DNA of 64,000 nt, taken from NCBI GenBank assembly GCA_019058245.1, contig JAHPZJ010000030.1, positions 96,001 to 160,000 of the forward strand, in the 5' to 3' direction. This DNA comes from Promethearchaeota archaeon. GTDB taxonomy: Archaea > Asgardarchaeota > Lokiarchaeia > Sigyniarchaeales > SOKP01. Below, piece by piece: positions 21,387 through 45,324 of this stretch. Each line of letters begins with the position of its first letter. The stretch's first letter is position 1. Under the pieces are notes generated by a model, which was given only the letters and a program-made list of their open reading frames with translations, was not told where the DNA came from and searched no databases. Position numbers and translations under genes: made by a program.

Positions 21387-22124
21387 TTACAATCCTGGAA
21401 TCTCTGTTCGTTTGTGAAGGGTGTCCAAACCTTTAGAGATAATTGCTATAGTGATTAGAAATATAATAGCGACAATAATGTAGGTTGTGAGTGATATAAA
21501 CGAATCTGCAACAATAGATTTTGCTTGTCCAAAGAGTTCAGTAGCTCCAATTAATGAAACAACAACAGTATATTTCGGTAAATATGCTGCTTCATTTGAC
21601 CACGCAGGAATTACACGACGTAAAGCTTGTGGTAAAATTATATGACGAATTCCCGCTACACGCGACATACCTATCGATTGAGCAGCCATTAGTTGCCCGG
21701 CACCAATAGACATTATTGAACTACGCAAATATTCAGCTTGATAAGCTGCACTATTAAGACTTAAGGCAATGATTCCAAATAAAATTCGGTGATTTAAGAA
21801 AATAAAAGTTATATTTTTATCAAATATGCTAAATCTAGCTAACACGTTCCATGTTCCAACTGGTATATTTAATCCATAAAATATAAAGAATAATTGTGCA
21901 ATTAAAGGAGTACCTCGTATAAACTCAATATATCCTCCGGATACTCTTGAAAGTATTCTACCTCCATATTGCCGGAAAAGAGAAAGTAAAAGTCCTAAGA
22001 AGAATCCTATCATAAGTGCCCATACATAAAGCCACATTGTAGTAAGAAAACCAGATAAGATTCGGTCCCAGTATCCTAATATAGTGAAAATTTCCCCTAT
22101 TGGATTGTTTTGTTGAAAAATCAT
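21387..22124 (-). CDS. Polar amino acid ABC transporter permease
   Basis: YIEFIRGTP, NSAAYQAEYLR, ILPQA. Confidence 0.93.
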   Translation of the reverse strand: MIFQQNNPIGEIFTILGYWDRILSGFLTTMWLYVWALMIGFFLGLLLSLFRQYGGRILSRVSGGYIEFIRGTPLIAQLFFIFYGLNIPVGTWNVLARFSIFDKNITFIFLNHRILFGIIALSLNSAAYQAEYLRSSIMSIGAGQLMAAQSIGMSRVAGIRHIILPQALRRVIPAWSNEAAYLPKYTVVVSLIGATELFGQAKSIVADSFISLTTYIIVAIIFLITIAIISKGLDTLHKRTEIPGL

Positions 22125-22900
22125 TATTTTTCCTCCTCTTCTAATAAGTCTATCATTTGTTCATGAGTCCCATATAATACTTCAAGCTGTTTTAGAAATT
22201 TTCTTACACGTTCAGATTCTGGTTTCATGAAGAAATGTTTAGGTGTACCACGTTCAATAACTGCACCTTCACTAAGAAAGATCATTTCCGTCGCTACAGC
22301 TTTAGCAAATCCCATTTCATGGGTTACGACAACCATTGTTGTGCCTGCTTTAGCGATGTCTAACATAACTTGAAGTACTTCACCTATTAGTTCAGGATCT
22401 AAAGCAGAGGTAGGTTCATCAAATAAAATTATATCTGGTTCCATGGATAGAGCTCGAGCGATTCCTACTCTTTGTTGTTGACCTCCAGATAGCTGAGCAG
22501 GATAATGGTCTGCCCATTCTGCCATTTTAACACGTTCTAGAGCTTCAAGAGCTTTTTCTCTAGCTTCTTCCTTGGAAAATCCTTTAACTCGACGAAGTCC
22601 AATACTTACATTATCAATTGCTTTAAGATGGGCGAATAAATTGAAATGTTGAAATACCATCCCTATTCGGGTCCGGATTTCGTTTAGGTTAACCCCAGAT
22701 GCCGTAATATTTTTCCCGTGAAGAAAGATTTCACCTTTATCTGGTGGATTTAACATGTTAATACATCGAAGTAATGTACTTTTACCAGAACCGCTTGGTC
22801 CAAATATAACCTTTACTTCTTTTTCAGCTAATTCAAAGGAAACTCCTTTAAGTACTTGTAAGTCTTCATACGATTTCCACACATTATTCACGCTTAACAC
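22124..22900 (-). CDS. Polar amino acid ABC transporter ATP-binding protein (GlnQ/ArtP-like)
   Basis: GPSGSGKST, LSGGQQQRV, FDEPTSALDPE, THEMGFA. Confidence 0.95.
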   Translation of the reverse strand: MLSVNNVWKSYEDLQVLKGVSFELAEKEVKVIFGPSGSGKSTLLRCINMLNPPDKGEIFLHGKNITASGVNLNEIRTRIGMVFQHFNLFAHLKAIDNVSIGLRRVKGFSKEEAREKALEALERVKMAEWADHYPAQLSGGQQQRVGIARALSMEPDIILFDEPTSALDPELIGEVLQVMLDIAKAGTTMVVVTHEMGFAKAVATEMIFLSEGAVIERGTPKHFFMKPESERVRKFLKQLEVLYGTHEQMIDLLEEEEK

Positions 22901-22923
22901 TGGTTCGTATTTAACCTCTATCC

Positions 22924-23610
22924 TTAACCACCCCCCATTCCTAATTTTTTAAGTTTCTTGGTTTGGTGTTCACCAAATAATTTTGTTATCGGATATGTCA
23001 ATAAAAAATAGAGAATTGCTAGTACACCAATAGAAACTGTCCAAAATCCTCGAAAGGCATATGAAAAATTATATGCAGCTCTGGTCAACTCGACAATTCC
23101 AACTGCATAAGCAAAGGAAGAATCCTTAATGACTACTGAATACTCATTGGACCAACTAGGCATAGCTAGTCTTAATGCTTGGGGTAGAACAACGTGTCGA
23201 AAAGTTTGAAGCCCACTCATCCCCAAAGCACGTGCAGCTTCAATCTGTCCTGGATTTACAGATAAAATAGCACCACGAAAAATTTGAGATTGATATGCCC
23301 CACTTCGAAGTCCGAGTGCAAAAATTATACTTGCTAAAGGTCTTTGAAGAGGATCTACATACCAGAATAACTCTGGAACTCCAAATGCAAATATATAAAT
23401 TAGCACTAGAATAGGAATACCTCGGAAAATCTTCTCATAGCCGCTTGCTAACCAATTAAGCTCTTTCCCTGCATAAACACGCATGAGAGCTAATATAATA
23501 CCTAAAACAAATCCAATTAATAAGCCCAGTACTGTCATAAGCAATGTTTGGGCTAATCCCTTTGTGACAATATAAATTAAAATGTCAGCTAGGTCCGGCA
23601 TATTACTCAT
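22924..23610 (-). CDS. Polar amino acid ABC transporter permease
   Basis: FRGIP, GQIEAARALGM, LPQA, IKDSS. Confidence 0.93.
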   Translation of the reverse strand: MSNMPDLADILIYIVTKGLAQTLLMTVLGLLIGFVLGIILALMRVYAGKELNWLASGYEKIFRGIPILVLIYIFAFGVPELFWYVDPLQRPLASIIFALGLRSGAYQSQIFRGAILSVNPGQIEAARALGMSGLQTFRHVVLPQALRLAMPSWSNEYSVVIKDSSFAYAVGIVELTRAAYNFSYAFRGFWTVSIGVLAILYFLLTYPITKLFGEHQTKKLKKLGMGGG

Positions 23611-23617
23611 CCTTTAA

Positions 23618-24439
23618 TTAACCAAACCATTCATCCATTAAATCAAATATTGATCCATCCTGATAACTGTCAAAAATAACTTGATTCATAGTATACAATA
23701 GTTTTGGTTCCCCCAGCCTAGTCCATAAAGCAAGAGGTTCCGTTCCTGTACTATATATTATCTTTATATCGTATGTATTTGCCCAAGCTGTAAAAACTGG
23801 CTCATCTACATATGCAAGCTGTATAGCTCCACTATCTAATGCTAACATTAGATCATTTGCATTATCATATACTAATAAATCAGCCCCTACAGTCATATCT
23901 AAACCATCGGGACCTAGCTCCTCATACATAACAGTTCCAGTTTGAACACCAACAGTATAATCTTCGAGATCGTTTATAGTTGTTATTGTGATTCCTGACG
24001 CATTAGGAGCAACTACAGCTTGACTCACAGTAATATACGTAATGGATGGTGCAAGATTTTCTGCTCGTTCTTCTGTATATGTCATAGCGGCGGCAATCAT
24101 ATCTATTGTTCCTGCTCTACAAGCAGCAATCAGAGAATCAAAGGGTATATTCTGCATCACAAGGTCAACACCTATTTCGTCTGCAATCATCTCCGCTACA
24201 TCTATATCAAAGCCTACAATAAGTCCTTCAGGATAAGTTAAATTTTCAAAAGGCGGATAATCTGCACTTGTTCCCACAATTAGTTCTCCTCGAGCAACAA
24301 TTGTATCAAGTAATGGAGTACGAGCAGCCTCTGGAATAGGTGAAGGTATAAACCATCCACCAATTAATCCAACTCCAAAACCAACTATAATTGCTATTAT
24401 TGCAATTTCTCTTCTTATTACTGGTGATTCTCTACTCAT
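23618..24439 (-). CDS. Polar amino acid ABC transporter substrate-binding protein (SBP family 3), TM-anchored
   Basis: GTSADYPPFE, GFDIDV, VGVQTGT; N-terminal hydrophobic anchor. Confidence 0.93.
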   Translation of the reverse strand: MSRESPVIRREIAIIAIIVGFGVGLIGGWFIPSPIPEAARTPLLDTIVARGELIVGTSADYPPFENLTYPEGLIVGFDIDVAEMIADEIGVDLVMQNIPFDSLIAACRAGTIDMIAAAMTYTEERAENLAPSITYITVSQAVVAPNASGITITTINDLEDYTVGVQTGTVMYEELGPDGLDMTVGADLLVYDNANDLMLALDSGAIQLAYVDEPVFTAWANTYDIKIIYSTGTEPLALWTRLGEPKLLYTMNQVIFDSYQDGSIFDLMDEWFG

Positions 24440-24844
24440 TTAATTATAACCTCATTTTTTATTTTTTTTAATAATTCATTAATGGTAATTTTTGGATAAA
24501 TTTTGATGTGGATATATTTTTAAGTAAATATATAAACATTTCTATCCAATTATGATTTAAAGTAATTATTCCGAGATTTAAAATCAACATTTAATATTCT
24601 TCAATTAATAGGTATTACTTCTAAAAAAGTTTAATATAAGGTTTTTGTCAAGGAGTTCTTTTTGTAATTTAATATAACTCTTATCTTGTTTGGAAATAAT
24701 TCTCTAAATTTAATCAATATCTTAATAATTCGAGATGTATTTTTTTAAATTTATAATGTCTATAATTTTCATTAAAACATTAAAAATTATAGCAATAAAA
24801 GATCAATATTTAAATAATATATTATAAAATGTTAGAGATCAAAA

Positions 24845-26329
24845 ATGAGAAAAAATTTATATAGGATAGGATTAGATATTCCTCTCAACAATGATGCGCT
24901 TAAGTTTATCTCATCTTTAAAAGAAGATTTTTGGATTGTTGAGGAAGATATAATTGGTACTCAAGTCCATAATATTATGCTTTTTGAGCAAAAAATCCTT
25001 GATGAAACTGAGATAAGGAAAATCTTATTTGCCCTTGAGCAAATAAAAAATAAGATTAAGAGTAATAAAATTGAGATAGATGATAGTTTTGAAGATATAC
25101 ATCCATTTATAGAAAAAAGTGTAATTGATACAATTGGGATTGAAATTGGAGGTAAATTACATACTGGTAGATCTAGAAATGATCAAGTATCAGTTGATTT
25201 AAGACTAAAAATCAGAAAGGAGTTAAATAAGATTTCTGAAGGATTATTTGCTCTCATTGATATTTTACTTAATCTTTCTAAAAATAACATAAGTTCATAT
25301 CTGCCATTATATACTCATTTACAAAGAGGACAATTAGGGGTTTTTTCTCATTATATCAATAATTATATTGCTCAGTTTTTAAGAACTCTAGAAAGAATAG
25401 AAGAAATTTATAATAGAGTTAATAAGAATCCACTCGGAGCATGTGCAATAGGAGGAACAAGTATTAATATCAATAGGAATAGGACATCAGAATTACTAGG
25501 ATTTGATGGATTAGTTTATAACTCTATTGATGCTATAAGTTCAAGAGATTATATTTATGAAACATTAATGGTTTTTTCTTTACTAGCTATCCAATTTTCG
25601 AGAATTGCTGAAGATTTAATAATTTGGGCGACTAAAGAATTTAACTTCATAGAATTAGCTGATGAATACTGTTCTGTATCAAGTGTTATGCCACAAAAAA
25701 AAAATCCAGATACTGTAGAATTAATAAGGAGCAGAAGTTCAAAAGTAGTTTCAAACTTATTTAGTACAGCAATGATTATTAAAGCTATTCCAACAGGTTA
25801 CTTTAAAGATTTCCAAGATTTAAAGAAGAAATTGATAAGTTCGATTAATATAATACTTTCAATAATTACAATGTTTAAAGGTATATTTTCAACAATATCC
25901 ATTAATAAAGACAATATGCGACACGCTATTGATGATAGTTTTATTCTTGCTTTAGATTTAGCTGAACTATTAGTACAAGACTATAACATCCCTTTTAGAC
26001 AATCGCATGAAATTGTTGCATTACTAGTAAAGAATTTAGAAAAGCCAGAAGATATGTTAAATAGAGAAAAAATTGAGAAATCAATTTTCAATGTAATAAA
26101 AAAGGAAATAAATTTATCAGAGAAAGTAATTCAAACAATAAAAAATTTGGATCTTTGTTTAGAAAGAAGAATTAGTCAAGGTTCTCCATCTGGAAAAGAG
26201 GTAAAACTTAATATTGATAAACTAGGAAAATGGAAAGATTCATTGTACACTTTATTTTTAAACAGAATAGAAAAAGTAAAAAATGCTAAAGTTCTAAGAA
26301 ATAGACTTATTGAGAAATTAATCTCATGA
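24845..26329 (+). CDS. argH: Argininosuccinate lyase
   Basis: EDIH, KLHTGRSRNDQV, YTHLQ, SSVMPQKKNPD. Confidence 0.95.
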   Translation: MRKNLYRIGLDIPLNNDALKFISSLKEDFWIVEEDIIGTQVHNIMLFEQKILDETEIRKILFALEQIKNKIKSNKIEIDDSFEDIHPFIEKSVIDTIGIEIGGKLHTGRSRNDQVSVDLRLKIRKELNKISEGLFALIDILLNLSKNNISSYLPLYTHLQRGQLGVFSHYINNYIAQFLRTLERIEEIYNRVNKNPLGACAIGGTSININRNRTSELLGFDGLVYNSIDAISSRDYIYETLMVFSLLAIQFSRIAEDLIIWATKEFNFIELADEYCSVSSVMPQKKNPDTVELIRSRSSKVVSNLFSTAMIIKAIPTGYFKDFQDLKKKLISSINIILSIITMFKGIFSTISINKDNMRHAIDDSFILALDLAELLVQDYNIPFRQSHEIVALLVKNLEKPEDMLNREKIEKSIFNVIKKEINLSEKVIQTIKNLDLCLERRISQGSPSGKEVKLNIDKLGKWKDSLYTLFLNRIEKVKNAKVLRNRLIEKLIS

Positions 26330-26424
26330 AAAATAAATTATTGACAATGGTTAAAAGACCTTAATAATCAGAAATTTTCTCTAGTAAATGATTAATATAT
26401 TTATTATTTATTTGTTCCCTAAAC

Positions 26425-26434
26425 TTTTTAAATA
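26425..26434 (+). promoter_or_regulatory. Putative TATA box for the arg leader/argJ transcript
   Basis: AAAC-TTTTTAAATA about 50 nt upstream of the first possible leader start; AT-rich background limits confidence. Confidence 0.4.
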
Positions 26435-26504
26435 GCGCTTCCTATTATAAAATTATTAATAATTTTGTGTTGGTGTTAAAAGTTTGATTTCACTTGATCT
26501 TAAT

Positions 26505-26591
26505 ATGAATTATGAAATTGATAAAATTCAATTTCTGAGAACACCATACAAATTAAATCTGGCACGTCGCCGTCGTCTGCTAATTTATTAA
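26505..26591 (+). CDS. Putative arginine leader peptide (28 aa; 35 aa if started at TTG 26484)
   Basis: MNYEIDKIQFLRTPYKLNLARRRRLLIY*; Arg run CGT CGC CGT CGT at 26565-26576; stop 112 nt upstream of argJ; in-frame TTG at 26484 has GGTG 8 nt upstream. Confidence 0.8.
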   Translation: MNYEIDKIQFLRTPYKLNLARRRRLLIY

Positions 26592-26661
26592 TAAATATAA
26601 GAATTGAAGTATAATTCTTATTTCTTCACTTCTTCAAATTTATTATTTTTATAATTTTTTT
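26590..26661 (+). terminator. Putative attenuator: hairpin with alternative pairing, then T-tracts
   Basis: ATAAGAATT (26597-26605) / AATTCTTAT (26613-26621); alternative TTGAAG (26604-26609) / CTTCAA (26632-26637) plus AATAAAT / ATTTATT; T5 at 26646-26650 and T7 at 26655-26661. Confidence 0.5.
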
Positions 26662-26703
26662 AAAATATTAATTGATACAAAAATTTTTAATGGTTTATAA
26701 GAA

Positions 26704-27945
26704 ATGGAAAAAAAGAATGCAGGAATAAAGAAAATTAATGGAGGAATTACAAGTCCAAAAGGATATCATGCTACTGGAAGTCATATAGGGATAAAAGAAT
26801 GCAAAAAAGATTTAGCTATAGTATATAGTGATGTTCCAGCCAAAGCAGTAGGTGTCTTTACTACAAATTTATTAAAAGCATCTTCAGTTTTATGGAATCA
26901 GAATCTTATTAAAAATCACAATATGATACAAGGTATAGTTGTTAATAGTGGAAATGCTAACGTTTGTACAGGAGAAATAGGGGATAAACATACAGAAATG
27001 ATGGCTGCTGAGTTAGCTTCTTGTTTGGGATTTAATAAAAATCAAGTAATAGTTGCTTCTACAGGGGTTATTGGAAAACTTCTTCCAATTGAAATTATAA
27101 TTAAGGGTATTAAAAATACTTGTAAAACCCTAGGAATTACTGAAAATGATGCTAGATTGGCTGCTGAAGCAATAATAACGACAGATACACACCCAAAAGA
27201 GATCTCGGTTGAATTTATTATCGATAATAAGAAAATTAGAATTGGAGGTATGGCTAAGGGTTCTGGAATGATTCATCCAAATATGGCAACTATGCTTTCA
27301 TTTATTTCAACGGATATAAATATTTCAAGAGAATTATTGGAAAAAGCTTTAAAAGAAAGCATTGAAGAATCATATAATATGATCTCTGTAGATGGTGATA
27401 CAAGTACTAGTGATTCAGTAATTCTTTTGGCTAATGGAATGAGTAATAACTCAGAAATCTTGGATGAGGGTGAAGATTATCTCACTTTTAAACAAGCTCT
27501 TCACTATGTAAATTTATATTTAGCTCAAGAAATTGTAAGAGATGGAGAAGGAGCAAATAAATTTATTACAGTCCATGTTAAAGGAGCTGCATCAAAGCAA
27601 GATGCAAAGATCTTAAGTAAATCTGTTATAACCTCAAATTTAGTTAAAACCGCATTCTTTGGAGAAGATGCAAATTGGGGTAGAATTATTTGTGCTATGG
27701 GATATTCTGGAGCTAATTTTGATCCTTCAAAAGTTTCAATAAAGTATTTAAATAGTGGTAATTCAATTGAGGTTATGAAAGATGGTATGTCTTTAGAATT
27801 TGATGAAGATTTAGCATTAAAAATATTAAAAGAAAAAGAAATTATTGTAGAATTAATTTTAAAAGATGGAGAAAGTGAGGCAATCGCATGGGGATGTGAT
27901 TTAAGTTATGATTATGTCCGAATTAATGGTTCTTATAGAACCTGA
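26704..27945 (+). CDS. argJ: Bifunctional glutamate N-acetyltransferase/ornithine acetyltransferase
   Basis: NSGNAN..TG, STGVIG, TTDT, KGSGMIHPNMATML, VDGDTSTSD, DGEGA, DANWGR. Confidence 0.96.
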   Translation: MEKKNAGIKKINGGITSPKGYHATGSHIGIKECKKDLAIVYSDVPAKAVGVFTTNLLKASSVLWNQNLIKNHNMIQGIVVNSGNANVCTGEIGDKHTEMMAAELASCLGFNKNQVIVASTGVIGKLLPIEIIIKGIKNTCKTLGITENDARLAAEAIITTDTHPKEISVEFIIDNKKIRIGGMAKGSGMIHPNMATMLSFISTDINISRELLEKALKESIEESYNMISVDGDTSTSDSVILLANGMSNNSEILDEGEDYLTFKQALHYVNLYLAQEIVRDGEGANKFITVHVKGAASKQDAKILSKSVITSNLVKTAFFGEDANWGRIICAMGYSGANFDPSKVSIKYLNSGNSIEVMKDGMSLEFDEDLALKILKEKEIIVELILKDGESEAIAWGCDLSYDYVRINGSYRT

Positions 27946-27958
27946 AAAGGTGGAAAAA

Positions 27959-28819
27959 ATGATTGAAAATATTGGAAAAGCAAAAATTTTGATAGAAGCA
28001 ATAAAATACATCAGAGCTTTTTACAGAAAAACTTTTGTTATTAAATATGGGGGTAGTGCAATGGTAAAACCTGAGCTTAAAAAGAGTTTTATTGAAGACC
28101 TCATTTTCCTCAATTTCGTAGGAATAAATGTAATAGTTGTGCATGGGGGTGGAGCTTCAATTAACACCTTATTAGACAAATTAAAAATCGAGTCAAAATT
28201 TTTTAATGGCCTTAGAATTACCGATGAAGAAACAATGGATGTTGTTGAGATGGTATTAGCTGGTAAAATAAATAAGGGAATAGTAAATGATATTCAAACT
28301 CAAGGAAGTAATGCAATAGGACTAAGTGGGAAAGATAGCAATTTACTGAAGGTCAAGAAAAAAATGGTTGAAGGAGAGGATTTAGGGTTTGTTGGCGAGG
28401 TAACTGAAGTAAATACTCAATTTTTAAAAGGGATACTAAAAAATTCTTTAATTCCTGTTATTGCTCCAATAGGTTCAGATCATATAGGAAATACATATAA
28501 TATCAATGCTGATGAAGTGGCACTAGCCATTTCAAAAGCATTAAATGTAGAAAAGTTAATCTATATAACTGACGTTTTAGGAGTACTTCTTGATGTAAAT
28601 GATAAGAATTCTCTAATATCAGAATTGAGGACTGAACAAGCTTTATCTTATATTAGAGAAGGTAAAATTACAGAAGGGATGATTCCAAAAGTAAGAAGTT
28701 GTATAGAAGCAGTAAATAGTGATGTAAAAGCAGTACATATTATAGATGGTAGAATTGAACATAGTCTTTTACTTGAAATTTTAACTCCTCAAGGGATTGG
28801 TACAATGTTTAAAAAGTAA
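27959..28819 (+). CDS. argB: Acetylglutamate kinase
   Basis: IKYGGSAM, VHGGG, GLRITD, NINAD, GMIPK; start moved to ATG 27959 after AGGTGG. Confidence 0.96.
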   Translation: MIENIGKAKILIEAIKYIRAFYRKTFVIKYGGSAMVKPELKKSFIEDLIFLNFVGINVIVVHGGGASINTLLDKLKIESKFFNGLRITDEETMDVVEMVLAGKINKGIVNDIQTQGSNAIGLSGKDSNLLKVKKKMVEGEDLGFVGEVTEVNTQFLKGILKNSLIPVIAPIGSDHIGNTYNINADEVALAISKALNVEKLIYITDVLGVLLDVNDKNSLISELRTEQALSYIREGKITEGMIPKVRSCIEAVNSDVKAVHIIDGRIEHSLLLEILTPQGIGTMFKK

Positions 28820-28863
28820 AATTATATAAAAAAAGTATAGAAATAAAAGAGAGGAAATTAATC

Positions 28864-30066
28864 ATGAGTGATTGGATTGAAAGGGGAACTAAGGTTATAA
28901 TGAACACTTATAAACAGTTTCCCATTGTATTAGAAAAAGGAAATGGCGTTTATCTCTGGGATAGTGAAGGAAAAAAGTACCTTGATTTTGTTGCAGGGAT
29001 AGCTGTAAATGCTTTAGGTTATAATGATTCTGACTATATTCAAGAAATTACTACACAATTAAAAAAAATGCAACATTGTTCAAATTTATACTGGATGATA
29101 CCATCAATAGAATTAGGCGAGATTTTAATTCAAAATAGTTGTTTTGATAAAATATTTTATTGTAATAGTGGAGCTGAAGCTGTTGAAGCCGCAATAAAAT
29201 TGAGTAAGAAGTATGGAAAGAAAGTCCATGGAAATAATTGTAGTAAAATTATTACAATGAAGAGATCGTTTCACGGAAGAACAATGGCAACGATCACTGC
29301 AACAGGTCAGACTAAATATCAAAAGGGATTCGATCCATTAATGCCTGGATTTTCCTATGTTGAATTTAATAACTATAATGAGTTAAAAGAAGCAGTCAAT
29401 GAAGATACCTGTGCTATTATTATAGAACCTATACAGGGAGAAGGAGGAATTCATCCTGCTGAGAAGTCATTTTTAAAAGAAGTACGAGCTCTGTGTGATG
29501 AAAAAGATATTGTACTTGTATTTGATGAAGTTCAATGTGGAATCGGAAGAACTGGCGAATTATTTGCATATCAATTATTTGATGTAAAACCTGATGTAGT
29601 TTCATTAGCAAAAGGTTTAGCTGGAGGTATTCCCATAGGAGCAATGCTGGCAGTTCAGAGTAAAGCGGATGCTTTTCAACCTGGTGATCATGCATCAACG
29701 TTTGGAGGCAATCATTTAGCATGTACAGCAGGTAAGGTAGTACTAAATAAATTATTAAACGGTGGGATTCTTGAAAATGTACGAAAACAAGGGAAATATC
29801 TAAAAGAAAAGTTAATTAATTTAAAGGAAAAATATGCGATGATTAAAGAGGTAAGGGGCTATGGTTTAATGCTCGGTCTTGAACTAAATATTCCTGTCAA
29901 GGATATAATAGAAATATGTATGGAACAAGGTTTACTTATTTTAGGTGCTGGAGAAAACGTAATAAGATTTGTTCCACCGCTGATAATTAACAAAAATGAA
30001 ATTGATGAAGGAGTAACTATCCTTGATGGGGTACTACAACAATTCAAAAATAATAAAGGTTTATAA
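28864..30066 (+). CDS. argD: Acetylornithine aminotransferase
   Basis: YLDFVAGIAVN.LG, NSGAEA, SFHGRT, DEVQCG.GRTG, AKGLAGG, HASTFGGN. Confidence 0.94.
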   Translation: MSDWIERGTKVIMNTYKQFPIVLEKGNGVYLWDSEGKKYLDFVAGIAVNALGYNDSDYIQEITTQLKKMQHCSNLYWMIPSIELGEILIQNSCFDKIFYCNSGAEAVEAAIKLSKKYGKKVHGNNCSKIITMKRSFHGRTMATITATGQTKYQKGFDPLMPGFSYVEFNNYNELKEAVNEDTCAIIIEPIQGEGGIHPAEKSFLKEVRALCDEKDIVLVFDEVQCGIGRTGELFAYQLFDVKPDVVSLAKGLAGGIPIGAMLAVQSKADAFQPGDHASTFGGNHLACTAGKVVLNKLLNGGILENVRKQGKYLKEKLINLKEKYAMIKEVRGYGLMLGLELNIPVKDIIEICMEQGLLILGAGENVIRFVPPLIINKNEIDEGVTILDGVLQQFKNNKGL

Positions 30067-31112
30067 TGATGATTAGAGCAGGTATAATAGGAGCAACTGG
30101 ATATGTAGGTTCAGATTTAGTTAGAATTTTATATCATCATCCTGAAGTAGAATTAAAATTATTAACTTCTAAAAATCATAAAAATCAAAGTTATAATTCA
30201 GTATATTCAAACTTCAACAAAATATGTGAGATGATATGTGATGAGGATGATCTTGATTCTGCAATAAACCAACTTGATATAATTTTTCTATCATTACCTC
30301 ATGGAGTAACTTCAAGTATATTAACAGATAAGATTTTAAAAAATGTAAAGGTTATTGACCTCAGTGCTGATTTTCGATTAAAGAGTGTAGATGAATATGT
30401 GGAATGGTATAACATTAAACATAGTAATGCTAATCTGTTGAAAAAAGCAGTCTATGGTCTTTCTGAATGGAAAAGAGAACAAATAAAAAATTCAAAATTA
30501 GTTGCTAATCCTGGTTGCTATCCAACTTGTGCTTTATTATGTTTATTACCTCTTATCAAAGAAGGGATTTTAGAAGAAGAACACATAATTATTGATGCAA
30601 AGTCAGGAGTGTCAGGTGCAGGAAGATCTTTAAATCTTGGAACTCATTTCTCAGAAAGTAATGAATCAACTAAGGCATATAACGTTCTCTCTCATCGACA
30701 TACTCCAGAGATCGATCAGGAATTAAGTGAAGTAAATGGAAATGAAATATCAGTTATTTTTACACCCCATCTAATCCCAATGAATCGAGGAATATTATGT
30801 ACTTGTTATGGGATTCTTAAAAAGTCATATAATTATGAAGATATCAAAAAAATATATGAAGATAATTATGAAAATGAATTTTTTATTCGTCTAATGAAGA
30901 AAAATGATTTACCTGAAACGAGATGGGTTAAGGGTTCAAATTATTGTGATATTGGTTTTAGTCTAGATGAAAAAGCTAATAGAATAATTATAGTTGGAGC
31001 AATTGACAATCTAGTTAAGGGTGGAGCAGGACAAGCTGTTCAAAATATGAATTTAATGTTTGATTTAGAAGAGAATATAGGGTTAAAATCAATTCCTATG
31101 TTCCCTGTTTAA
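30066..31112 (+). CDS. argC: N-acetyl-gamma-glutamyl-phosphate reductase
   Basis: GATGYVG, DLSADFR, ANPGCYPT, SGVSGAGR, HRHTPE, DNLVKG.AGQA. Confidence 0.96.
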   Translation: MMIRAGIIGATGYVGSDLVRILYHHPEVELKLLTSKNHKNQSYNSVYSNFNKICEMICDEDDLDSAINQLDIIFLSLPHGVTSSILTDKILKNVKVIDLSADFRLKSVDEYVEWYNIKHSNANLLKKAVYGLSEWKREQIKNSKLVANPGCYPTCALLCLLPLIKEGILEEEHIIIDAKSGVSGAGRSLNLGTHFSESNESTKAYNVLSHRHTPEIDQELSEVNGNEISVIFTPHLIPMNRGILCTCYGILKKSYNYEDIKKIYEDNYENEFFIRLMKKNDLPETRWVKGSNYCDIGFSLDEKANRIIIVGAIDNLVKGGAGQAVQNMNLMFDLEENIGLKSIPMFPV

Positions 31113-31160
31113 AGAAAAATAATAATATAATAGGCAATAATAAAAAAAAGTGAGGGATTA

Positions 31161-32462
31161 ATGAATCAATTAGGACCTAAAAAAAATAAATACAATAAAA
31201 TTTTATTGATGTATTCTGGTGGTCTGGATACTTCTTGCATGATAAAATGGTTACAAGATAAATACAGTTCTGAAGTTTATACCTTTACAGCCGATCTCGG
31301 TCAAGAATTCGTAGATCCATCCAGATTTGAGGAAATAGAAGAAAAAGCATATAATTTAGGGGTTAAAAAACATTACACCATTGATTTAAAAGAGAAATTT
31401 GTATGTGATTATCTTTTTCCAACTATTAAAGCAAATGGTTTGTATCAGGGAATATATCCTTTAAGTACGGCAGTAGGAAGACCCTTAATAGCTATTGAAG
31501 CGATAAAAATTGCAAGACAAGAAAAAATTGAAGCAATAGCTCATGGATGCACAGGTAAAGGAAATGATCAAATAAGGTTTAATGTTACAATGAGAGCTTA
31601 TGCTCCTAATATTGAGATATTGCAACCAATAATAGAATGGAATATGGGTAGAGATGAAGAAATTAAATATGCTCAACTCCATGAAATTCCTATTCAAAAA
31701 CAAAACAAAAAATATAGTGTTGATGAGAATCTTTTTGGACGAAGTGTAGAATGTGATGTTTTAGAATATCCAGAAATTGAACCCCCGGAGGATTGTTATT
31801 CTTGGACAGTATCACCAGAAAATGCTCCTGATAATCCGGAATACATTCAAATTCATTTTGAAAAAGGAATGCCAATCCAATTAAATGATAAAAGTTTAAA
31901 TTGTGTTGATTTAATTAGAGAACTTCATAATATTGGTTGTAAACATGGAATTGGTAGAGTTAATCATATGGAAGATCGAGCAATTGGATTAAAATCAAGA
32001 GAAATATATGAAATTCCCGCGGCGTTAATTTTAATTAAAGCACATAAAGATCTTGAAAAATTTGTTTGTACCAAGCATGAGAATTCGTTTAAAACGATAG
32101 TAGACCAAAGATGGACAGAATTAGCTTATGAAGGATTATGGGTAGATCCATTAAGAGATGCTTTGGAAGCATTTATTAATGTTATAAATGAAAAAGTAAC
32201 AGGAGAAGTAAAAGTGAAACTTTTCAAAGGGAGTGCTAGTGTGGTTTCAAGGGAATCTCCTTATGGCCTCTATGATATAAATTTAGCTACATATGATACC
32301 AAGAGTACATTCAATCAAAAATTGAGTTATGGATTCATTCCAATATGGGGATTACAAAGTGAGATTGGTTTTCAAGTCAGAAATACTGCTAAATCAATAA
32401 CAGGATCTACAAATAATGACCAAATGGAGGAGGTAATAAAATATGAAACTAAAAAAGAATAA
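31161..32462 (+). CDS. argG: Argininosuccinate synthase
   Basis: YSGGLDTS, HGCTGKGNDQIRF, YSVDENL, GLKSREIYE. Confidence 0.96.
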   Translation: MNQLGPKKNKYNKILLMYSGGLDTSCMIKWLQDKYSSEVYTFTADLGQEFVDPSRFEEIEEKAYNLGVKKHYTIDLKEKFVCDYLFPTIKANGLYQGIYPLSTAVGRPLIAIEAIKIARQEKIEAIAHGCTGKGNDQIRFNVTMRAYAPNIEILQPIIEWNMGRDEEIKYAQLHEIPIQKQNKKYSVDENLFGRSVECDVLEYPEIEPPEDCYSWTVSPENAPDNPEYIQIHFEKGMPIQLNDKSLNCVDLIRELHNIGCKHGIGRVNHMEDRAIGLKSREIYEIPAALILIKAHKDLEKFVCTKHENSFKTIVDQRWTELAYEGLWVDPLRDALEAFINVINEKVTGEVKVKLFKGSASVVSRESPYGLYDINLATYDTKSTFNQKLSYGFIPIWGLQSEIGFQVRNTAKSITGSTNNDQMEEVIKYETKKE

Positions 32463-45079: not shown

Positions 45080-45167
45080 TCCCCCAAACTAAAATTGAAT
45101 TTAGTTTGATTTAAATCCGATGAATAAAAGATACCTTATACTATATTAATTCATCGGAATTATTCAT
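45080..45167 (-). promoter_or_regulatory. Putative his attenuator RNA structures
   Basis: 10-bp inverted repeat TCCGATGAAT (45116-45125 / 45149-45158); competing 8-bp pairing 45120-45127 / 45160-45167; 9-bp hairpin 45085-45093 / 45100-45108 touching the GGGGGA SD (45080-45085) of hisIE. Confidence 0.65.
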
Positions 45168-45324
45168 GATGTAGCCAATGATGCAAGTATGAATTACGGG
45201 TTTTAAAACAATCACCTCTCACATCATTCGATTTAATAACAAGATTGTTATTAAAGTTATTTATAATAAAGAAACTCAATTTAGAAAGACATTGGTTAAG
45301 AACATTTTTTCTATTAAAATCCAT
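45160..45324 (-). CDS. Putative histidine leader peptide (54 aa; 20 aa if started at GTG 45222)
   Basis: MDFNRKNVLNQCLSKLSFFIINNFNNNLVIKSNDVRGDCFKTRNSYLHHWLHHE*; all four His codons at 45166-45183; stop 86 nt upstream of hisIE; AAGTGA before the ATG. Confidence 0.75.
   Translation of the reverse strand: MDFNRKNVLNQCLSKLSFFIINNFNNNLVIKSNDVRGDCFKTRNSYLHHWLHHE
45232..45255. repeat. 24-bp near-perfect palindrome in the his upstream region
   Basis: TTTAATAACAA-GA-TTGTTATTAAA. Confidence 0.7.

Follow-up and report, generated by a model that had tools for sequence, protein, structure and literature searches.

The short open reading frame in front of the argJ-argB-argD-argC-argG operon of a Promethearchaeota (Asgard) archaeon is very probably the leader of a ribosome-mediated arginine attenuator, which would read the supply of charged tRNA-Arg and raise expression of argJBDCG when arginine is short. 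Comparison with related loci shows the parts of the leader: a promoter-like box, a Shine-Dalgarno (SD) sequence, a start codon, an open frame, arginine codons, a helix between the SD and an anti-SD segment, a post-stop hairpin and a U-tract. This comparison of sequences gives good support to the core of the initial annotation, which took a leader with Arg codons to be an attenuator of the arg operon. The exact output step is more tentative: I propose a choice between read-through and termination of transcription at the U-tract, probably through aCPSF1/FttA, and on this point my confidence stays just below the midpoint.

Coordinates refer to the window, that is, the whole 64,000-nt stretch of DNA that was analysed, unless another contig or locus is named. 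The leader ORF (argL-like; 26484-26591, plus strand, as are all features of this locus) lies in the 374-nt gap between argH and the five-gene operon that is its predicted target (26704-32462; NCBIfam matches above cut-off). It opens with TTG and runs for 35 codons here, compared with 30-31 in most relatives. Its candidate regulatory codons, CGT CGC CGT CGT (codons 28-31; 26565-26576), encode the four arginines of the peptide segment L-A-R-R-R-R-L. The ORF with its four tandem CGN codons is present exactly as first described, and so is the GC-rich island in an AT-rich gap: the 60 nt at 26520-26579 are 40% GC, whereas flanking segments in the gap are 7-25%. Upstream lie a TTTATATA-type box (26425-26434), the putative archaeal TATA box of a leader-argJBDCG transcript with a predicted start site, and an SD with the core GGTG (26471-26477). 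Matches to sigma-70 promoters near the leader were set aside, as the host is an archaeon. An alternative start would be the ATG at 26505, and codon 8 is indeed TTG, ATG or GTG in 20 of 24 leaders, but it has no SD; the start at 26484 is preferred because every leader has a start codon at codon 1, preceded by an SD. Before this amino-acid biosynthesis operon there is, then, a short ORF with its own SD and start codon.

Relatives were gathered through ArgJ and not through the leader, which gave 31 distinct loci, and the leader ORF was found in every argJ locus of the clade that has enough upstream DNA. Among 400 genomes of the phylum, strong leader matches (E<1e-13) occur only in nine family genomes with an argJ of the host type, the leader profile having been built from those same nine genomes. 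GGTG stands 8-9 nt before the start in 31/31 leaders, close to the spacing at which this motif peaks genome-wide (7-8 nt before starts), and in most homologous leaders a TATA-like box precedes the SD by about 45 nt. All homologues open with TTG or ATG, which interchange at codon 1. The 204 changes tallied in the 24 full-length leaders include no internal stop, against 6.6 expected (P ~0.001; P 0.004 on variable columns only), and the internal deletions, 12 nt in locus L141 and 15 nt in L144, are in frame; the spacer after the stop, unlike the ORF, has many non-triplet indels. The homologous leaders are related to one another, so these counts overstate independence. The initial annotation had named conservation of nucleotides without conservation of frame as the outcome that would refute it, and the absence of stops and the triplet deletions are the opposite of that. 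Profile searches found neither a second copy of the leader in the source genome nor, among the bacterial arg loci collected ahead of L126 and L242, a homologue.

The arginine codons themselves are conserved in a looser form than the source genome suggests. A run of four CGN codons is unique, in any frame or strand, in this 3.09-Mb, 29% GC genome, but it is specific to it: a 4-nt insertion after the Arg block supplies one extra CGT and moves the stop four codons downstream relative to the relatives, in which the block reads R-L-R, R-H-R, R-R-G or R-R-R (in L245 with AGG). Aligning the argJ upstream regions, as had been proposed, thus recovers the frame but not the run of four. What is kept is a cluster of cognate codons 1-7 codons before the stop, and it is kept as codons. 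All 24 full-length leaders in the tally encode Arg at position 28, by way of three different codons (CGG 14, CGT 9, CGC 1), and codon 25 is AGA in 21 of them. The last eight codons hold two to six Arg across the 31 leaders, some relatives having two Arg codons only. In the terminal four codons of these leaders there are 29 CGG, 26 CGT, 17 CGC, one AGA and one AGG, so that CGG, CGT and CGC make up 72 of 74; CGA, the commonest CGN codon of the genome, is never used. The six arg genes look quite different, with AGA at 52 of their 72 Arg codons, bearing out the remark that the neighbouring genes mostly use AGA, and CGT, CGC or CGG at one of the 72. The leader codons had also been called rare, which suits CGC and CGG (3.2% of Arg codons genome-wide each) better than CGT, which at 12.2% is about as common as AGG (11.7%). 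The only tRNA-Arg among the 19 tRNAs called in the source genome, which is 76% complete, is tRNA-Arg(UCG).

These patterns bear on two simpler explanations. That the GC patch arose by chance, or that the ORF has no function, is so improbable that it hardly needs weighing: the leader is one of five among 1,968 intergenic sORFs with at least four Arg codons, so a further four end with as many in the last ten codons, but four CGN codons in a row occur nowhere else, the 31 loci keep the SD and the frame, and the site is before argJ. An RNA-only element (a riboswitch, a protein site or the remnant of a T-box) that happens to contain an ORF would account for the conserved helices and the low rate of synonymous change described below, and a bacterial relative of the operon does have a T-box. 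Against such an element stand the avoidance of stops, the triplet deletions, the interchange of start codons and the synonymous spelling of Arg28, and Rfam gave no leader match in the gap, only chance matches. I consider it very improbable. The T-box model (RF00230) has no covariance-model match at the source locus, compared with 131 bits at the control locus L241, a bacterial relative in which a T-box leader (L241:936-1167) precedes argC-argJ and is followed by a second copy of the terminator segment. The idea of a conserved GC hairpin at the Arg codons was also rejected, which counts against an RNA-only element as well: the register of this hairpin shifts between species, and it hardly outperforms synonymous shuffles (0.53 in the source genome, mostly 0.05-0.3 elsewhere).

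If the frame is under selection, is the peptide? The leader has a pN/pS of 0.65, compared with 0.22 for argJ, and a pS of 0.28 against 0.48, which indicates that its synonymous sites are constrained. With no stops and with deletions in triplets, the frame is selected and the peptide weakly so. The apparent peptide motifs coincide with RNA helices found by RNAalifold, codons 11-18 (the EIVxxQF motif; 26514-26535) with hairpin H1 and codons 19-21 with helix P1, in which the anti-SD segment (26540-26546) pairs with the leader's own SD. Over 28 sequences these helices have 91.7% of their cells paired, compared with 38-57% when slid. H1 has 90% of cells paired and four of its nine pairs changed on both sides, and it is deleted in L141; P1 has 94% paired, with one-sided changes only and no double compensatory change. 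In predicted folds of five leaders the SD becomes fully paired once codons 19-21 have been transcribed, and P1, the helix that hides the SD, is among the conserved motifs. This suggests a device that would admit mainly the first ribosome.

The same data speak to an arrest peptide, by which the nascent chain would sense arginine or ornithine in the exit tunnel and stall the ribosome at the stop, as in the fungal arginine attenuator peptide (AAP), TnaC and SpeFL. The length of 30-31 residues is kept, pN/pS is below one, and E11, F17, A20, P21, R25 and R28 survive in the diverged L122. Yet there is no conserved nascent peptide with conserved spacing: selection on the protein is weak relative to argJ, the conserved motifs are the RNA helices, and deletions are tolerated, one removing EIV (L141) and another altering the spacing to the Arg block (L144). 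In the most diverged leaders, L122 and L245, most residues have changed and the anti-SD at codons 19-21 is kept, L245 even lacking E11 and F17, which argues against an arrest peptide. The sister leaders described next also fit a codon logic, and I regard arrest by the peptide as unlikely, by a wide margin.

The strongest argument for codon sensing comes from other operons of the same genome (G000), in which four amino acids each match their own pathway. A Leu leader of 33 codons (contig C10, 40915-41016, plus strand) has nine Leu in its last ten codons, followed by a hairpin, before leuA-leuC-leuD-leuB. A His leader (window 45160-45324, minus strand) ends with four His within seven codons and a 9-bp hairpin before the his operon, and the trp operon is preceded by a Trp leader of 17 codons (contig C6, about 120951-121004, minus strand) with three Trp and a hairpin that encloses a long pyrimidine loop. 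Ranked against the 1,968 intergenic sORFs, the leuA leader comes first for Leu, the his-operon leader first for His, and the trp-operon leader joint first, one of two, for Trp-tailed sORFs. By eye, no such leader was seen before the solitary hisG, cysK, thrC, serA or glnA of the source genome, nor was an Arg leader seen before carA (carAB lies elsewhere, on contig C23) or for argH itself, the latter in 24420-24845, upstream of the argJ leader. A second hisG-like gene lies outside the his operon (contig C25, 59025-60026, minus strand).

After the stop codon, every one of the 31 leaders has a purine-rich arm, a pyrimidine-rich tract and one to four U4 tracts, and the last 40 nt are 53-75% U. In the source genome the hairpin (26589-26645) has a purine-rich 5' arm and a pyrimidine-rich loop and 3' arm, begins at the stop codon, which forms its base, and folds at -10.9 kcal/mol; it is weak, with z -0.2 when the stop codon is left out and -0.81 for the whole region. 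Across the 31 leaders the median z against shuffles is -2.95, with values below -1 in 26, and the first pair falls 0-10 nt after the stop in 30, while RNAalifold finds no consensus structure downstream of the stop. The conserved U-rich tract (26639-26661) is a candidate archaeal terminator or aCPSF1/FttA site. A GC-rich intrinsic terminator (a GC stem and a U run) is absent from 26300-26750, which holds only an AU-rich hairpin and U-tracts, and for this reason I do not file the leader as a classical transcription attenuator. U4 tracts are bound by aCPSF1, an activity that the Loki orthologue also shows in vivo in Methanococcus (PMC8716108); aCPSF1/FttA is encoded in all five genomes checked, the source genome and four relatives. 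The source genome has in addition a second, shorter gene of the aCPSF family, without the N-terminal part and with one TAA inside the match (contig C30, 83769-85076, minus strand).

From these parts a sequence of events can be proposed. The first ribosome would load before codons 19-21 are transcribed, after which P1 would close the SD to later ribosomes. The archaeal ribosome has a footprint of 27 nt, reaching 12 nt 5' of the P site (PMC7261190), so that 9 nt past the stop codon are covered when the ribosome stands there, and no nucleotide past it while the ribosome is waiting at Arg28. When arginine is low, the ribosome would wait at Arg28-30; its front, 12 nt from the A site, would then reach the stop codon or slightly beyond, the post-stop hairpin would fold over the U-rich RNA, and transcription would read through. 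When arginine is high, the ribosome at the stop would cover the next 9 nt, in which the hairpin starts, and the U-tract, single-stranded and untranslated, would let transcription end, probably through aCPSF1/FttA. In the model the hairpin base does lie within the footprint of a ribosome at the stop, although there is no consensus structure downstream, and the U-tract becomes more likely to be unpaired (probability 0.63-0.73 instead of 0.48), which is partly an effect of removing 5' sequence and no independent proof. Two leaders are poorly explained by this output step: in L122 a U5 run follows the hairpin as in an intrinsic terminator, so that the logic would have to be reversed, and L245 keeps a 23-nt U-rich loop open within its hairpin.

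The same Arg-codon sensor could instead act on translation or mRNA decay, the freed pyrimidine tract pairing with an A-rich segment and the start region of argJ once the ribosome is at the stop. In many folds the U-rich arm can pair with the start region of argJ, the freed arm of L122 pairs with the argJ SD and raises its opening energy from 3.0 to 5.1 kcal/mol, and SpeFL/orf34 works partly in this way (PMC6386406). However, the switch is inconsistent: the opening energy of the argJ start goes up in eight leaders and down in 13, and the mean is 4.28 compared with 4.23 kcal/mol. Occlusion of the argJ ribosome-binding site thus shows no consistent switch, and an output of this kind seems rather unlikely. 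I retain termination at the U-tract as the favoured, if tentative, output.

The operon behind the leader is of the bacterial argJBDCG type in an archaeal host. In a quick tree the host's ArgJ clade falls among bacterial ArgJ, with no supported donor, and the nearest named ArgJ proteins are from Promethearchaeota or Loki. An argJ of the host type occurs in 14 of 400 genomes of the phylum and nine of 135 of the family. The initial annotation set the leader against the ArgR repression usual in bacteria. ArgR (PF01316) was indeed not found in the source genome (76% complete) or in four relatives that are 98-100% complete, but the contrast is secondary; with an Asgard host, the chief novelty is the archaeal setting. 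Divergent from argH lies a polar amino-acid ABC transporter operon (window 21387-24439, minus strand), with a weak, below-cut-off match to a Lys/Arg/Orn-binding family.

Other Arg-rich ORFs precede arg genes elsewhere. In a second argJ lineage (L126, from Promethearchaeota, and L242), different ORFs of 22-24 codons are found 200-260 nt ahead of argJ; they contain 3-5 Arg codons, many of them AGA or AGG (in L242 most), and are followed by hairpins with U-rich loops. These are unlike the clade leader by eye, and with no bacterial homologue of the latter found by profile, this points to a repeated origin of Arg leaders before arg genes, as judged from their sequences. A single example, L004 (genome G047), has a 23-codon ORF with three Arg codons (AGA, CGC, CGG) some 220-290 nt upstream of argJ. 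Arg-rich leader ORFs of two families, neither related to the archaeal leader, stand before argC/argJ at Melainabacteria loci (L027, L030, L036, L040, L043, L047 and L084, near 1760-1800; L016:420, L017:2677 and L061:2649), labelled mostly Gastranaerophilales, Obscuribacterales or Cyanobacteria. In Fusibacter, short ORFs that open with three Arg codons lie just before argJ (L039:2917 and L042:2902).

Attenuators of amino-acid operons are well known from enterobacteria (trpL, hisL, leuL, thrL, pheL and ilvL). The Asgard leader resembles the trpL/hisL type in having a biosynthetic operon preceded by a short ORF, cognate codons only a few triplets ahead of the stop, a weakly selected peptide, RNA structure that overlaps the end of the ORF, a downstream U-tract and an SD that the leader itself can occlude. 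It differs in its archaeal host and promoter and in its amino acid, arginine, and it has neither a GC-rich intrinsic terminator nor a clear set of 1:2, 2:3 and 3:4 helices. In the fungal AAP (the arg-2/CPA1 uORF) free arginine is sensed through the peptide, and scanning is blocked in high arginine. There, as proposed here, an upstream ORF controls an arginine-pathway gene according to arginine level, but the Asgard leader conserves Arg codons and RNA helices and not the peptide. The Arg T-box and ArgR with its ARG box control the same genes, and the T-box also reads the charging of tRNA-Arg; ArgR control differs in that, as noted, ArgR was not found in the five genomes.

Judged by its design, the nearest arginine analogue is Salmonella orf34/SpeFL before speF, in which Arg codons are sensed and rare and frequent Arg codons work alike (PMC6386406). 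Both leaders have about 30-34 codons, with tandem Arg codons that sense arginine, and in both a ribosome at the stop would prevent a post-stop hairpin that a stall at the Arg codons allows, functions known for orf34 (PMC6386406) and proposed for the Asgard leader; a factor-dependent terminator is involved in Salmonella and presumably in the archaeon. Orf34/SpeFL differs in that it controls ornithine decarboxylase, has its Arg pair at codons 12-13, acts through Rho and RNase G and has a conserved peptide core (PMC6386406), to whose motif I saw no similarity by eye in the Asgard leader. Two statements of the initial annotation need qualifying. Rarity of the cognate codons, said to sensitise attenuators, makes no difference in orf34, and Arg-codon sensing by a leader ORF, called unusual in any domain, is known from bacteria (orf34/SpeFL; PMC6386406), with further Arg-rich leaders seen in Melainabacteria.

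A literature search, outside which most subscription papers lay, found no leader-peptide attenuator in archaea and none for arginine synthesis. A transcriptome paper of 2014 described attenuators in archaea as lacking direct experimental support (PMC4247193), and a 2025 review called functional evidence for archaeal transcription-translation coupling scarce (PMC13681488). It is conceivable, though I lean slightly against it, that Asgard archaea possess a genome-wide set of attenuators (here for Arg, His, Trp and Leu) in which ribosome position gates the access of aCPSF1/FttA to a U-tract. This would amount to archaeal attenuation that dispenses with bacterial terminators and became attached, independently, to an operon whose bacterial relatives have other controls. 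The 240-nt cassette, with its defined codons, hairpin and U-tract, is testable in a laboratory archaeon, and such a test would show whether coupling and FttA serve conditional regulation. If the reading is true, an Asgard archaeon has a bacterial-style ribosome gauge of its arginine supply, and the closest prokaryotic relatives of eukaryotes make use of uORFs to sense amino acids.
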